Positions 39,022 to 45,300 of a stretch of 64,000 bases of DNA are shown here, in pieces. The notes beneath the pieces were generated by a model that saw only the letters and a program-made list of their open reading frames with translations, searched no databases and was not told where the DNA came from. Location: UHGV virus genome UHGV-0036384. One strand, 5' to 3'. The position numbers were made by a program, and so were the translations under genes. Each line of letters opens with the position of its first letter. Position 1 is the stretch's first letter. The stretch comes from a virus.

Positions 39022-39582
39022 ATGAAAACAATCGAACAAAAACTTGAACAGCGCCGCGAGTGGCAGAAGGCAGCCAGAGAACGAGCGATCGCTCGGCAAC
39101 GGGAAAAGTTGGCTGACCCCGCCTGGCGAGAATCGCAATATCAGAAAATGCGGGATTCTATCGACCGCCGTATCGCTAAACAGAAAGAGCGCCCACCAGC
39201 CAGCAAAACGCGGAAAAGTGCGGTAAAGATAAAATCTCGTGGCTTGAAGGGGCGAACATCGACAGCGGAGGAACGGAGCATCGCCAATGCTCTTGGCGCT
39301 CTCCCCTGCATTGCCTGCTACATGCATGGAGTAATATCTGAAGAGGTATCTCTGCACCATATCTCCGGTCGTACCGCGCCGGGTTGTCACAAAAAGCAAT
39401 TGCCCCTTTGTAGATGGCACCACCAGCATGCAGCACCGGCTGAAGTAAGAGAAAAATACCCCTGGCTGGTACCTGTTCATGCCGATGGTGTGGTTGGAGG
39501 CAAGAAAGAATTCACCTTGCTGAACAAGTCAGAGATGGAGTTGCTGGCTGACGCCTATGAGATGGCAAACATCATGCACTAA
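39022..39582 (+). CDS. ref: Ref recombination enhancement function (HNH endonuclease, 186 aa)
   Basis: HNH motif CIACYMHG...HHISGRTAPGCHKKQLPLCRWHH; length equals P1 Ref. Confidence 0.85.
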   Translation: MKTIEQKLEQRREWQKAARERAIARQREKLADPAWRESQYQKMRDSIDRRIAKQKERPPASKTRKSAVKIKSRGLKGRTSTAEERSIANALGALPCIACYMHGVISEEVSLHHISGRTAPGCHKKQLPLCRWHHQHAAPAEVREKYPWLVPVHADGVVGGKKEFTLLNKSEMELLADAYEMANIMH

Positions 39583-39591
39583 TAAATATAT
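39575..39591 (+). promoter_or_regulatory. C1 operator-like site overlapping the ref stop
   Basis: ATGCACTAATAAATATA. Confidence 0.5.
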
Positions 39592-39732
39592 TATTTTTAA
39601 TCTGAAATAATTGACAACTGACAAGTGACTTCAGTCAGAATCATCACATGCCCGGTACGGATGGATCCCTTTTCAAATATTCCATGGACGGCACAGTCTG
39701 AGTACCGGGCGCTACCTTCAGTTGTATTGCTA

Positions 39733-39759
39733 AGCCGCCGCTGGTGGCTTTTCTTTTTT
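39733..39759 (+). terminator. terminator-like hairpin containing a Chi octamer
   Basis: AGCCGCC-GCT-GGTGGCT followed by TTTCTTTTTT. Confidence 0.5.
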
Positions 39760-39770
39760 GTAGGGGCGCT

Positions 39771-40412
39771 ATGGATAAGAAAATATGCGTTGTGTCGATG
39801 AGCGTCGGCAAACCGGCGTCAATGACTGCTGCATGGATCAATAACGAGCTGATAATGGCTGAGCGGACCAGCTACCCTGAACGCCGCCGCGATATGGAAC
39901 TCCAGCTGCTGCGCGAATTGCGAGAAAAAGAGGAAAAGGGTTTTATCGTGCTGGTGGAAGAGGAAAACAGCTTTATTACTGGTCGAGTTGGCCAGCGTGT
40001 AAGGTTGCGCGATCCCTTCATGAACGGCAGGCCGGTACTAATTGAGGCAATGCAGATTTATAAGGAGCTGGAACGCCAGAAAGCAATCAAGTTACCGCGC
40101 AAGGAATCCGGCAAATACATTCTCCACCAAAGCATCTTCGATTCCGAACACGATAAAAAAGGCGATGAATTTTTCAACATCAACTGGAGCGAAATAACGA
40201 CAGAGCATGTTCTGACGTTACTATGTTGCTTTGCGACGGAATACAACAACGTTGCCAGCGCCGACTACATCAGGGCAATGGCTGGAGAAGTTGAGGCCCG
40301 CCAAGAACCATCGTTACTAAGTCCACTGATTAACATAATTCTGGGCACCCAGATACTGGAACAAAAAAAAGTGCCGAAAGGGGTATTAACAGGCAAGCAT
40401 AATTATTTTTAA
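39771..40412 (+). CDS. mat: hypothetical protein, Mat candidate (213 aa)
   Basis: Synteny-based: ORF after ref, where P1 mat lies; AGGGG SD before ATG 39771. Confidence 0.45.
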   Translation: MDKKICVVSMSVGKPASMTAAWINNELIMAERTSYPERRRDMELQLLRELREKEEKGFIVLVEEENSFITGRVGQRVRLRDPFMNGRPVLIEAMQIYKELERQKAIKLPRKESGKYILHQSIFDSEHDKKGDEFFNINWSEITTEHVLTLLCCFATEYNNVASADYIRAMAGEVEARQEPSLLSPLINIILGTQILEQKKVPKGVLTGKHNYF

Positions 40413-40505
40413 CAATTACATACAGTAATTTTGTGGTTACATTCTCCATTGATTTTCTAACCGCTTTATCATTAGATGTAACAGCATGTAAATCATTTAA
40501 AATGG

Positions 40506-41642
40506 ATGAAAGCAATGGGGAATGAAGTTTATCAAAGTCAAAAATGCAAGTTGAAATATTCAAAATCTCAAATTGATAGGGCTGCTCAATTGATAAGGCA
40601 CGGGTGTAGTGACGAAGAAAGGCAGCAATCTATTGAAATGATACAAAATTTCCGTGAGCTGCATCTTTATCCATTAATGCTCATGAAAAATCATTTAGCA
40701 AGAGCAGCTGCTAAGGTTGACAAGGACAAAAAGATTCTCGTTGCAAGAAGACTTAAGCGACTTTCTACCATAATAGATAAACTAGAGCGTCCTAGTCTTG
40801 ATGGAGGCAGAACTAGCAATGCAATTAAATTAACACGGATGCAGGACGTTGGCGGATGTAGGGCCATTGTCAGAAACTTAGACCAGTTGATACAGCTAAA
40901 GGAACGTCTTTTAAAAAGCAAATCTGTTCATAGGATTGTTAAAGAGTATGATTATCTTACTCCCAAAGACAGCGGCTATAGTGGAATCCACCTTGCATAC
41001 AGTTGCTTCGATCAGAAAGAGGATCAATATCCGTGGCGAAAAACAAAGATTGAGATACAGTTAAGAACTCAATTGCAGCATGCTTGGGCTACCAGCCTTG
41101 AAATAATTGATACCCTTGAAGGTATCAAGCTGAAAACTTCAAGTGAAGGGCATCCAGAATGGAGACGATTTTTCTATCTAGCCGGATGTCTTGTAGCGCA
41201 CGACGAAAAAGCCTGCACTCTTGATGAGCTAGTTGTATCTCAGTATGAAGGCGAGCTTAAAGAGCTGGAACGGACTTTATCTGTACGGAGGAAACTAAGC
41301 ACATACACCATCGCCTTAAATTTAACTTCTGACGCGAATTTGATTAAGAAGTTGCCAAAAAATCATAAGGGGCATTACTTAGTAACAATGAGAAATGCAG
41401 AAAACAAGCCCAATACAAAAAACAAAAAAATGTTCCTAGTGTCTGTTCGCGCATTTAAAACAAAAGAAGCAGATGAAGCCCTTGAGGCCTTAAATAAAGA
41501 CGATTCTAATCCTAATGTATTGATATCTGTTCTCGTTGCTACAGATAACATTAAGTCACTAAAAAAAGCCTACCCCAACTATTTTGGCTCAACAAACCAG
41601 TTTACAAAATTCTTAGATAAGCATCTTCGTAACGAAGGATAG
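40506..41642 (+). CDS. RelA/SpoT-like nucleotidyltransferase with C-terminal extension: candidate fused toxSAS toxin-antitoxin (CapRel-like), 375-378 aa
   Basis: Synthetase-domain motifs in order: DVGGCRAIV, DSGYSGIHLAY, EIQLRTQLQHAWA; about 190-aa C-terminal extension; no adjacent small antitoxin ORF; AT-rich; start may be Met4 (40515). Confidence 0.75.
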   Translation: MKAMGNEVYQSQKCKLKYSKSQIDRAAQLIRHGCSDEERQQSIEMIQNFRELHLYPLMLMKNHLARAAAKVDKDKKILVARRLKRLSTIIDKLERPSLDGGRTSNAIKLTRMQDVGGCRAIVRNLDQLIQLKERLLKSKSVHRIVKEYDYLTPKDSGYSGIHLAYSCFDQKEDQYPWRKTKIEIQLRTQLQHAWATSLEIIDTLEGIKLKTSSEGHPEWRRFFYLAGCLVAHDEKACTLDELVVSQYEGELKELERTLSVRRKLSTYTIALNLTSDANLIKKLPKNHKGHYLVTMRNAENKPNTKNKKMFLVSVRAFKTKEADEALEALNKDDSNPNVLISVLVATDNIKSLKKAYPNYFGSTNQFTKFLDKHLRNEG

Positions 41643-41650
41643 TTGCTTAA

Positions 41651-41675
41651 TTTTGCCCGGTAATTCCGGGCAAAA
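41651..41675. terminator. bidirectional terminator between convergent CapRel-like gene and lxc
   Basis: Perfect palindrome TTTTGCCCGG-TAATT-CCGGGCAAAA. Confidence 0.75.
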
Positions 41676-41678
41676 TTG

Positions 41679-41927
41679 TCAATCTGCATTCAGGAGCAAT
41701 GCGTTATCTATGATGATCTGCTCCCATTCTTCGAATGCCCGATCGCGGACGCCCTGGGGAACACTGTTAGTTTTGAAATCGACCACCGTCCGCCATTTCC
41801 CGTCCGGGCGGTACATGCGCAGAGCTTTACTTCCCCCTTCCCTGCGCACCTCAACGTTATGCTTATCAGCAAACTCTTGTAATGCTCGTAGCGTCCCATG
41901 CTTTACTGTGTAGTATCGCTTTTTCAA
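41679..41927 (-). CDS. lxc: Lxc candidate (C1 co-repressor, 82 aa)
   Basis: Synteny-based: last gene of the darB-ulx-lxc leftward operon. Confidence 0.5.
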   Translation of the reverse strand: MKKRYYTVKHGTLRALQEFADKHNVEVRREGGSKALRMYRPDGKWRTVVDFKTNSVPQGVRDRAFEEWEQIIIDNALLLNAD

Positions 41928-42364
41928 GTTTTCTCTCCAGCCTGTGCCAAGGCTTCAACTTCCAAATCGTAAGACTCAAACTCATAGTCCTGGTCGTCAA
42001 CTTCTTCAGGCACTGGCAGTAAATGCCAGGCTGAGTATATCTGACCATTATCAAAACGCTCCTGGCTGTAGAGCGTCGCGGCTATGAGTGTTAGCGCCGG
42101 GCGGTCATAACGGTAAATTTTGCGAACGTCACGGTCAACGAGACGACCGAAATTACCATAACCGCGCTCCAGTAATAATTTTTTAATTTCCGGCCAGTAT
42201 GGGCCATAGCTGCGGTACAGGCGGGGATTTTTCAGTAATCGCCCGCGTAGCCCTGACAGGAAGAAATCAACGTATTCGTCTTCTGTCTTTCCTAACAATG
42301 CCGTACGCAGTACCGCCTCAAGATATGTTTTATTCGGTTTTATTGTATCAGATAGTGTGGCCAT
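41924..42364 (-). CDS. ulx: Ulx candidate (146 aa)
   Basis: Synteny-based: between darB and lxc; ATGA overlap with lxc. Confidence 0.45.
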   Translation of the reverse strand: MATLSDTIKPNKTYLEAVLRTALLGKTEDEYVDFFLSGLRGRLLKNPRLYRSYGPYWPEIKKLLLERGYGNFGRLVDRDVRKIYRYDRPALTLIAATLYSQERFDNGQIYSAWHLLPVPEEVDDQDYEFESYDLEVEALAQAGEKT

Positions 42365-42397
42365 ATTATGCGACGCCCGGCGAACCGGGCGCTCCTG

Positions 42398-45300
42398 TTA
42401 TGCGTATTGTTGGATGACGGCCAGAACGTCCGCCACGTTGTGTTTTGTCTCGATAATCCACCAGTTACCCGGGAAATCGCTGTTCTTCGCCTTCGCTGGC
42501 AGCCAGCGAGCGCCGAATTTCGCCTTGATTGCGTCTTTCGCACGGAAAAGAACGCCTTTCATGCCTGAGGCTTCCTGAAGCCCAAATACCTCGCCAGCGG
42601 CGAATTTTGGTGCGTACATCATCTTCAGGTCGGCGGTGGATACGCGATAATTCAGACCAAGAGACTGAGCTATGCTGGTGGCATCACCCTGTATTGATGA
42701 TAACTCTTCTTGTTTCTCGTTTCTGGCGGCAATTTCTTCCTCCGTGATGTTGCCAAGGGCCAGGTTTATCCGATCAGCGTCGGCCTGTTTCTCTTCATCG
42801 GTGCGTCCGGCAAGAACCGTGTTAACTCTCTGCAATATCTCCACATGATTCTTGCGCATGCTGAGCAATTCCGGCGTAACCTCGTTAAGATCCACCAGCC
42901 CAAGGATGGCAAGGTCGGAAAACATTGATACCAGGTTGTAGGTCATGCGATAGCTGAGTTGACCATAGGCTGATGGCAACTTCACCGCATCCATTTGATA
43001 GGCATCCATAAATTTAGAGCCGTCGTTTACGACATCCGCAATTGCCGGTGTGATTTTTCCTGTGGTGGCGGCCTCCCTGATTGCTGTTACCCACGATTGA
43101 GTCAGCGCGGCGACTGCATGATTCAGATTGGCTTTCCGTTCTGCTGCAATGCGCGCACTTGCTGCGTCCATTGCCTGCTTGATCTCGTCTTTATTGCTGT
43201 AAATGCCAATGGTGCCAAACTGTGCTGTGGTGATCTCATAATCTGACGCCCGGAACTCATTGGTACCGAAAATGGCATTGGTGACTTCAAGTTCAGAATC
43301 CCCGTTACGAGTAGACCCCTGGCTTGTTTTTTCCGGCATTCTGGCGATCGCATCCGCTATTTTCTCCTGAATTGCTTCAGGGGATAGCGTATCTCCGTAT
43401 GACGCGATTACATCGCCATAATTGGAGCCAAACAATTCAACCAGGAATGTTTCTGCCGAACGGATCTGGCGGTTATTCCCTTCCGACATCATACCAAGCA
43501 CCCATTTTGCAATTGACGACTTCAGCGCGCCGTCACGGCGATCCGGGTAAACCGCATGCTTCAGTGGGTCCGTATAGGTGCCAACAAAATCAATGCTATA
43601 GCCTGACTCTGTAGTCTGAACGCCGTATGAGTCAGTGATTTTGATCATGCCGCGCTGCTGGAAACGGTAGAAATCGTCACAGGAAATGATGTCGTTAATC
43701 CCGGCGATGGAGACGCCACCACTGATTTTCTGCATAACAGCATCTTCATCGGGAGTTACATCCACCTGTTTATCCAGCGTCTTCACATCCCAGTTACCCG
43801 ATTTGGTGCCTTTGAAGGTAAAGATGATCTCCACGTCTGCGCGCTGGCTGTCGAAGTCCAGCGACTTAATGCGAACGATATCACCGGCACAATCATAGTA
43901 TTGGCCTACACGCCATGAGCGATCGCCGATAACAAGGAACTCATTCGCATGGTTAACCAGATCAGGATCAACATCCAGAATGCCTTTATTTATTGCATCC
44001 TCCACCAGCGGGCGCAGGCGTTTGATATCCGTCGCGGCCTTCTGAGTACGGTTCAATAATTTCTCATAGCGGGAGATGGCCTGAGAGATATTAGCCTTGC
44101 GCTGAATGGCGCTTTTCAACGACGCGCGATACTGTGCTAACAACATACGGTCTGTGTGATGGACGCTACCCCAGCGGGCTTTCCAGTCTGCGTTATCAGC
44201 TGCTTTGGCCATTACCGCCTGTTTGAATTTGGCGACGTCGGCGGTGGTCTTTTCAAGTTCCGCTTTGCTTCGCTCCAATTCAGCGGTAAGTACCTCCACA
44301 TCCTCACCAGCTGCGTGCTGCGCCTTGATGTAGTTCTGAAGGTCGATAGTAGCCTGTTCTTTCTGGCGAGCGCGTTTCGCAGCTTTCGCCTTATCCATTT
44401 GAACCTGCATCATTACCAGACGTTCGCCGTCATCCTTCGCGGTATACATCTGCATTTCGATCATGTCATTGGCGTCGGCGTTCTCCATTTCTGACTTATC
44501 TGAACGGAGGATATCGGAGATCCAGCCTGCTTTACGCTTCAGCGTCTTCAGTCGGTATTCATCGAAAGACCCCTTGCCGCAGTAGTAGTGAACGCGAACG
44601 CTTGCACGGTTGGAGCCAACTCGTGCACCGCGACCGTTACGTTGTGCGATACTGGCTGGTGTCCACGGCAACGTCAGGTGGTGGATATCCGTCGTTCCTC
44701 GATGCAGGTTGATACCCACCTCTGCCTTTTTGTTGCAGATGATGATCGGAGTCCGGCCCTCCTGGAAGTCGGCTGCAATCTTTTCCAGACCGCCCAACGA
44801 CATTTCATTTTGCTGCGCGATATAGGCGTCATACAGAGCCATTTGCTCGTTGTATTTCGCTATCTGTGCATCTGTTGGTTCATCCGGTAGCTCTTTCGGC
44901 GGTTTAACCGCTTTCAGTTTCTTACCGGTTTTACCTGCCTCGGCAACCGTCTGAGCATTCAGGATCCCCACCTTTGAAGGTTCAAGGTTTAGAGCATTGC
45001 AGATAATGCGCTTGAGCTTCTGGTGCTGCGTTTTTTCATCGGTGAAGATGATTTGCTTACCTTCCGGGAAAAACTCCTTCAGCGTGGCGATCAGCTTCGC
45101 GTATTTCGGCGTAACGGGGTGAGTTACGGTCTGTTCGTCAATGCCAAACCTGGCCAGGCGATTATTCACTTCCTGCTCAAATGCTTCCGGTACCTGCAAC
45201 TGAATAAACTCGCCCTTATCTATCAGGGAGTATTGCGATTGCTGCGTGATCGAATCATCACTGTCGTCGTCTTCGCTGGTGGCTTGTTTAGGCAAACTGT

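Follow-up and report, generated by a model that had tools for sequence, protein, structure and literature searches.

The mat-lxc slot of a P1-like phage-plasmid carries a CapRel-family fused toxin-antitoxin gene, very probably a single-gene anti-phage module

We analysed a 64,000-nucleotide stretch of the virus genome UHGV-0036384 (the window), which derives from a P1-like phage-plasmid, and found that a single gene between mat and lxc encodes a fused toxSAS toxin-antitoxin of the CapRel family. We consider it very probable that this gene is a single-gene anti-phage module whose product is autoinhibited, is opened by a phage ligand and targets tRNA. The CapRel family, its mechanism and its position in P1-like genomes have already been described, and the window allele is a further relative. 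The reference used throughout is CapRel-SJ46 of Salmonella phage SJ46 (7ZTB, 9ERV; Zhang et al. 2022, 2024). Coordinates are those of the window, and residue numbers of the window protein count from Met4 (40515).

One intact open reading frame (ORF) of 378 aa was found at 40506-41642 on the + strand in the ORF listing of the window, as a preliminary description of this DNA had stated. It contains three RelA/SpoT motifs, MQDVGGCRAIVRN, KDSGYSGIHLAYS and IEIQLRTQLQHAWAT, which are those quoted in that description (DVGGCRAIV, DSGYSGIHLAY and EIQLRTQLQHAWA). A second in-frame ATG at 40515, corresponding to Met4, gives a 375-aa protein and is the start used by RefSeq/NCBI; initiation at 40506 would add MKA. 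The SJ46 gene likewise possesses an in-frame upstream ATG, and non-synonymous differences between the alleles in the two intervening codons mildly favour Met4 as the start. Counted from Met4, the G-loop tyrosine of the DSGY motif is residue 155, matching CapRel-SJ46 and the number given in the preliminary description. The window protein is 100% identical to RefSeq WP_000526244.1 (375 aa), whose cluster P0001 holds 313 member sequences; a search for literature on WP_000526244 returned none. The gene, its two regions and its upstream DNA are as follows.

40515..41642, + strand: capRel-like gene encoding a fused toxSAS toxin-antitoxin, 375 aa plus stop (Pfam, PADLOC, PDB and RefSeq matches)
40515..41114, + strand: N-terminal toxSYNTH (pyrophosphokinase) domain, about residues 1-200, with R79, R116 and Y155 kept and 79% identity to SJ46
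41115..41639, + strand: C-terminal antitoxin/sensor region (about residues 201-375), with an overall identity to SJ46 of 68% and of 62% over SJ46 270-340
40413..40514, + strand: non-coding DNA of the cassette ahead of the gene, presumed site of the promoter and ribosome-binding site, about 70% identical to SJ46 upstream DNA

Profile and sequence searches placed the protein in the CapRel family. Pfam RelA_SpoT (PF04607) matched residues 82-196 with 47.2 bits against a cut-off of 27 (E 3e-12), in agreement with the earlier assignment to RelA/SpoT-like enzymes. The PADLOC single-gene candidate system PDC-S33 matched residues 14-374 (E 6.7e-86), and a PDB sequence search retrieved the CapRel-SJ46 entries 7ZTB and 9ERV over residues 4-374 at about 5e-185 (4.9e-185 for 7ZTB). 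E-values of 5e-185 and 7e-86 exclude a chance match. End-to-end alignment to CapRel-SJ46, taken from the SJ46 genome, gave 73.7% identity (375 vs 373 aa), distributed by region as 79% (1-200), 71% (201-269), 62% (270-340) and 73% (341-373).

The residues on which CapRel function has been shown to depend in SJ46 are preserved. There, R79 and R116 stack on the adenine of ATP and Y155 is catalytic; A77, V338, L339, A341, A351, Y352 and Y355 form an interface whose mutation leads to constitutive toxicity; and L280 and L307 serve capsid sensing (PMC9712102). All 12 of these mutagenesis-tested residues are kept in the window protein, and Y155, R79 and R116, which align with their SJ46 counterparts, are invariant among 68 homologues. 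The YXXY motif is present as YPNY at residues 353-356, and the 15-residue block surrounding it, IKSLKKAYPNYFGST, is identical to SJ46.

An AlphaFold model built with 68 homologues (predicted local distance difference test, pLDDT, 82; predicted template-modelling score, pTM, 0.79) has the beta-sheet/helix pattern of small alarmone synthetases in its N-terminal part. The C-terminal part is laid out as linker helices, the anchor-1 helix alpha9, a pseudo-zinc-finger domain (pseudo-ZFD), YPNY and a terminal helix; the pseudo-ZFD is modelled as beta-beta-alpha-beta (beta 286-294, beta 307-315, alpha 316-330, beta 335-343), followed by helices at 346-371. The top Foldseek matches of the model were 9ERV ('CapRel bound to Bas11 Gp54') and 7ZTB ('Salmonella tRNA pyrophosphokinase CapRel') with template-modelling (TM) scores of 0.70-0.76, and RelP/RelQ structures were also matched. 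The root-mean-square deviation was about 9 Å despite about 70% identity, as would be expected if the domain arrangement of the model differs from that of the open crystal forms. Cumulatively, the alignment and the pseudo-ZFD of the model bear out the CapRel identity proposed earlier and support a fused CapRel-type toxSAS, in which a RelA/SpoT synthetase is joined to a C-terminal autoinhibitory/sensor domain.

The immediate surroundings of the gene agree with a one-gene module. mat ends at 40412 and lxc at 41679, leaving intergenic gaps of 93-102 bp and 36 bp, in which there is no space for a separate antitoxin gene; the earlier observation that no antitoxin ORF lies nearby thus holds. The relative AT-richness reported for the ORF was also confirmed, since GC content is 0.33-0.43 over 40350-41700 (0.38 for the whole cassette) vs 0.46-0.55 in the flanks. 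A search of Rfam over 39500-42500 returned no RNA family at E up to 1, and a hidden RNA gene or antisense element in that interval was rejected on this ground.

How such a protein would act can be outlined by analogy with experiments on SJ46 and two further homologues, CapRel-EcHT and CapRel-Ebc, which point to autoinhibition, tRNA as the target, abortive infection and a protein that acts as trigger. In SJ46 the N-terminal domain is toxic alone and is neutralised by the C-terminal domain (PMC9712102). In an uninfected lysogen, the pseudo-ZFD of the window protein would be folded back onto the synthetase domain, with YPNY inserted between R79 and R116, so that the ATP site is blocked and the enzyme is off. 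When another phage infects the cell, a protein made by the phage, or a complex of phage and host proteins, would bind the C-terminal domain and keep it open. The open enzyme would then transfer pyrophosphate from ATP to tRNA 3' ends, whereupon translation would stop and the infection abort, protecting sister cells and the resident plasmid prophage.

Several points weigh against this reading. Activity and a closed, YXXY-docked state are attributed to the window allele on the analogy of SJ46. A promoter scan and a comparison with SJ46 revealed no convincing sigma-70 promoter upstream of the gene, and expression in the lysogen is therefore assumed. SJ46 possesses a near-consensus sigma-70 promoter, TTAACA-N16-TATAAT (11/12), which overlaps the mat stop codon (SJ46 locus L001, 5931-5958); the window counterpart (40386-40416) reads TTAACA-N16-TTTAAC, with a -10 element weaker than that of SJ46. 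Within the sensor region, residues that contact Gp54 of Bas11, the second SJ46 trigger (PMC11578894), differ at four positions (K269N, S279K, R314K and K315T), and the beta6-beta7 loop is rewritten and carries a 1-aa insertion. With these contacts changed and the loop rewritten, the set of triggers known for SJ46 may not apply to the window allele. The upstream DNA at 40413-40514 consists of conserved blocks relative to SJ46 together with a 10-bp indel, and in SJ46 100-200 bp of upstream DNA was enough for native expression (PMC9712102, Methods); expression may differ between the two alleles, or transcription may run into the gene from mat. Among the SJ46 residues touching Gp54, L270, D273, N275, L276 and K278 are kept.

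The differences from SJ46 are not spread evenly over the protein. They concentrate in the beta6-beta7 loop, helix alpha10 and the last helix; in the loop, ITKNGKDTGK (SJ46 296-305) is replaced by ENKPNTKNKKM, which is 1 aa longer. Differing positions fall in columns that are variable in the family, with a mean entropy of 2.35 vs 0.97 bits (Mann-Whitney p 5e-24). Synonymous divergence from SJ46 (pS) was 0.85, and thus saturated, in every domain, whereas non-synonymous divergence (dN) was only 0.16-0.27, indicating that these are two old alleles under long-term purifying selection. Fast diversifying evolution of the sensor since the split from SJ46 was rejected, as synonymous sites are saturated gene-wide and the ratio of dN to synonymous divergence (dN/dS) is far below 1 in each domain. 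The gene is only 70% identical to SJ46 at the nucleotide level, while its flanks are 91-99% identical. A diverged gene within such flanks argues for cassette exchange by recombination and not for recent rapid evolution.

The alternative that survives best concerns the trigger and not the family. The window CapRel may respond to something other than the major capsid protein, namely a different phage protein or a phage-host complex, and we rate this as a serious possibility, if somewhat short of an even chance. CapRel is named after Cyanobacteria, Actinobacteria and Proteobacteria and not after capsid (PMC9712102). The trigger of CapRel-Ebc, which shares 70% identity with SJ46, is T7 Gp0.4 in complex with FtsZ (PMC13423816), showing that homologues with this overall identity recognise unrelated proteins, and SJ46 itself answers to Gp54 of Bas11. 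To place the window allele among the four homologues assayed in PMC9712102 (SJ46, Ebc, Kp and EcHT), the Ebc and EcHT constructs were taken from Supplementary Table 4 of that paper; the PDF text contains indels from optical character recognition, so that the clean C-terminal parts alone were compared and one Ebc base was restored via primer TZ-91. The sequences of Supplementary Table 4 rejected identity of the window allele with any of the four. In the sensor segment, counted from residue 260 to the last, the identity of the window protein is highest to SJ46 (65%), followed by EcHT (63%) and Ebc (56%); SJ46 is 58% identical to EcHT and 54.5% to Ebc. Furthermore, the window protein has an almost wholly different beta6-beta7 loop, and it is this loop that touches the capsid A-domain in the SJ46 model. 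On the side of capsid sensing, which in the SJ46/EcHT type means activation by the major capsid protein of SECphi27/Bas8-like phages, L280 and L307, required for it in SJ46, are kept; the anchor-1 helix alpha9 is nearly SJ46-like although highly variable in the family; and escape from SJ46 and from EcHT arises by mutations in the same capsid region (PMC9712102), although these two share just 58% of their sensor segment. Homologues just as close respond to unrelated proteins, so that homology does not reveal what triggers the window allele. Capsid sensing, which the preliminary description had given as a property of CapRel, is thus plausible but unproven: the tested leucines speak for it, yet the capsid-contacting loop has diverged, the sensor segment is 63-65% identical to the two capsid-sensing alleles, and the Ebc case shows that the property does not transfer with homology.

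Frequency and integrity of the gene bear on a second alternative. In PLSDB, 52 plasmids, all from Escherichia, contain the 1,266-bp interval at 99% identity or more. Among 5,426 complete E. coli genomes, 83 carry an intact copy of the window allele with at least 99% identity, almost always on a plasmid, and 14 carry the SJ46 allele, making the window allele about 6 times commoner. A marker of the lxc-ulx backbone was found in 699 of these genomes, so that the window allele (83 genomes) is present in about 12% of their P1-like elements. In plasmid NZ_CP050045.1 (H34), an IS1A element interrupts the CapRel interval, whose match falls in two pieces over 2,042 bp. In phage vB_EcoM-673R5 (L002, ON470615.2), the gene is annotated as two coding sequences, with single-base deletions in A-runs at the equivalents of 41016 and 41561; these are most likely sequencing errors and not marks of a real pseudogene. 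Four E. coli chromosomal sites match part of the cassette (for example NZ_CP125883.1 3480475-3480924), one such match covering only the last 36% of it and being annotated as a hypothetical protein; they are possibly integrated or degraded P1-like fragments.

That the gene might be a decaying or silent passenger, or serve plasmid maintenance only and have no defence role in this element, is improbable in our view. The lack of a clear upstream promoter, the IS1 insertion in one plasmid and the split gene in one phage record would fit a passenger. However, more than 80 genomes carry an intact ORF with 99% identity or more, dN/dS against SJ46 is far below 1, the split is best explained by two homopolymer deletions, and a fused toxin-antitoxin possesses no separately degradable antitoxin to drive post-segregational killing. 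Still less probable is a role as a small alarmone synthetase, with (p)ppGpp or (p)ppApp as its product and host physiology altered for the plasmid prophage, in place of a tRNA-targeting toxin: Pfam and NCBIfam matches are limited to generic RelA/SpoT and GTP diphosphokinase models and several databases name the protein 'GTP pyrophosphokinase', but the only NCBIfam match (YjbM) lies far below threshold at 35 bits vs a cut-off of 320, the catalytic domain is 79% identical to the tRNA pyrophosphokinase CapRel of 7ZTB, a translation-blocking enzyme (PMC9712102, PMC11578894), and the full-length architecture, with an autoinhibitory domain and YXXY, is that of a fused toxin-antitoxin.

The CapRel module stands in a variable slot of the P1 backbone (40413-41654). 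Upstream the window carries cre, c8, ref and mat, and downstream lxc, ulx and darB. Homology to P1 breaks off at 40413 and is regained at 41681; in place of this interval P1 has 3470-9751 (res, mod and IS5). P1 does carry EcoP1I res-mod at this position, as the preliminary description had stated. SJ46 carries its CapRel in the identical position (mat, CapRel, lxc, ulx, darB homologue), so the placement, which the preliminary description had singled out as a point of interest, is not new. To survey the slot, 80 P1-like IMG/VR loci were fetched with Mat as query and the mat-lxc distance was measured; both anchors were present in 74 of the 80. The slot contents, with the mat-lxc gap and the number of loci, were as follows.

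Empty: gap 36-46 bp, 10 loci
135-aa lipoprotein-like ORF: gap 592-594 bp, 3 loci
GNAT acetyltransferase (202 aa): gap 879-922 bp, 10 loci
PIN_12 protein: gap 1051-1061 bp, 5 loci
DUF2971 / PDC-S31 protein: gap 1203 bp, 8 loci
CapRel, window allele: gap 1273 bp, 3 loci plus 1 truncated locus
CapRel, SJ46 allele: gap 1278 bp, 8 loci
SIR2_2 protein (PDC-S25/ThsA-like), two alleles: gap 1409-1422 bp, 14 loci
YaaC plus nucleoside-deoxyribosyltransferase-like protein: gap 1705 bp, 3 loci
ANT plus HTH plus JukA: gap 3567-3574 bp, 3 loci
Type III restriction-modification (R-M): gap 5089-5099 bp, 7 loci

Every cassette is AT-rich (GC 0.35-0.43), and the cassettes fall into about ten unrelated sequence classes, while Lxc is 100% identical in nearly all surveyed loci. 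The mat-lxc slot is thus a compact, cleanly bounded, multi-allelic defence hotspot that is sometimes empty. As the slot is multi-allelic and also occurs empty, the earlier proposal that CapRel has replaced the R-M system holds only relative to the P1 reference. PADLOC gave zero matches for the GNAT cassette, the YaaC plus nucleoside-deoxyribosyltransferase-like cassette and the 135-aa lipoprotein-like ORF, which may be unrecognised defence or accessory modules. According to a 2025 preprint, CapRel or a dGTPase is common in P1-like phage-plasmids of E. coli and type III R-M in those of Salmonella (10.1101/2025.09.12.675607). Two alleles of the SIR2 cassette (L010 vs L029/L016), with about 66% DNA identity, mirror the two CapRel alleles. 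The pattern suggests old allelic lineages that have been repeatedly exchanged at this slot.

Two further features lie at the edges of the cassette.

40313..40412, + strand: last ~100 bp of mat, within the variable region (identity to other cassette classes)
41649..41677, no strand: perfect 12-bp inverted repeat with a 5-nt loop (folding and comparison with empty slots)

The 3' end of mat is 71-80% identical in most other classes and 96-100% identical where the locus holds the GNAT cassette or the CapRel allele of the window. As this end varies with the cassette, the left recombination boundary lies inside mat, and the Mat C-terminus travels with the variable region.

At the other edge, AATTTTGCCCGG/CCGGGCAAAATT is a perfect inverted repeat, as the preliminary description had seen, and folds into a stable hairpin (-22.4 kcal/mol, z -5.3), although its reading as a bidirectional terminator that closes the module did not stand. 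On both strands a T-run lies 5' of the GC stem and an A-run 3' of it; these runs extend the stem and leave no free U-tail. A terminator scan did not call the hairpin at 41649-41677, and a canonical bidirectional intrinsic terminator was rejected on both grounds. In the empty slot of locus L033, the mat stop is followed by AAGAT, GCCCGGTAATTCCGGGCAAAATTGTCAATCTG and then lxc. The GC core GCCCGG-TAATT-CCGGGC (41655-41671) and all sequence to its right are common to empty slots, and its presence in L033 (10671-10687) indicates that the hairpin core belongs to the backbone and not to the inserted cassette; a hairpin carried as part of the cassette was accordingly rejected. Across slot variants a GC-rich hairpin 3' of lxc is kept in structure while its sequence or loop varies: the empty slot of L022 has the same stem with another loop, and SJ46 has an unrelated perfect 11-bp stem in the same place (L001 7197-7221). 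The hairpin may stabilise 3' ends or terminate weakly.

Among known systems, CapRel-SJ46 is like the window protein in architecture, length and all catalytic, autoinhibition and tested sensor residues, as well as in its mat-CapRel-lxc-ulx-darB slot in a Punavirus phage-plasmid with a hairpin between the stop codon and lxc. It differs in the sequence of that hairpin, in its stronger candidate -10, in alpha9 and the pseudo-ZFD (62% identical) and in its roughly sixfold lower frequency. CapRel-EcHT (E. coli HT2012018; Zhang et al. 2022) is likewise a fused CapRel, with identical alpha10 (KEADEALEAL) and anchor-1 (LIKKLPKN) sequences. By contrast, its own upstream DNA resembles that of Ebc and not a P1-like element, its beta6-beta7 loop and C-terminal helix differ, and it is an assayed allele that defends against Bas8, with escape mutants in the capsid protein. 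CapRel-Ebc (Enterobacter chengduensis) shares the fused organisation, the conserved toxSYNTH domain and the YXXY motif; its distinct trigger, T7 Gp0.4 plus FtsZ, indicates that trigger specificity does not follow from family membership. The EcoP1I type III R-M system (P1 res/mod) is a defence module in the same mat-lxc slot, although its proteins and mechanism are unrelated and it comprises two genes on the opposite strand over about 5.1 kb (6.3 kb with IS5 in P1). The bicistronic toxSAS PhRel/ATphRel of mycobacteriophage Phrann is also a prophage-encoded, anti-phage RelA/SpoT-like pyrophosphokinase toxin; its antitoxin is a separate gene, whereas in the window protein the two are fused and no small ORF is adjacent.

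With about ten types of cassette recorded in it, the mat-lxc slot emerges from the survey as a defence hotspot. As the window allele is about 6 times commoner than the one that has been studied, its phage spectrum is relevant to host range and to phage therapy against strains with P1-like plasmids. Together with SJ46 and EcHT, it provides a natural experiment on the retargeting of sensor domains. We put forward, tentatively, that the window allele is the predominant P1-borne CapRel of E. coli and that its diverged pseudo-ZFD may recognise a trigger or set of phages unlike those of SJ46, EcHT and Ebc. If true, this would add a new sensor specificity to the CapRel family and a natural partner for mapping how sensor loops retarget.

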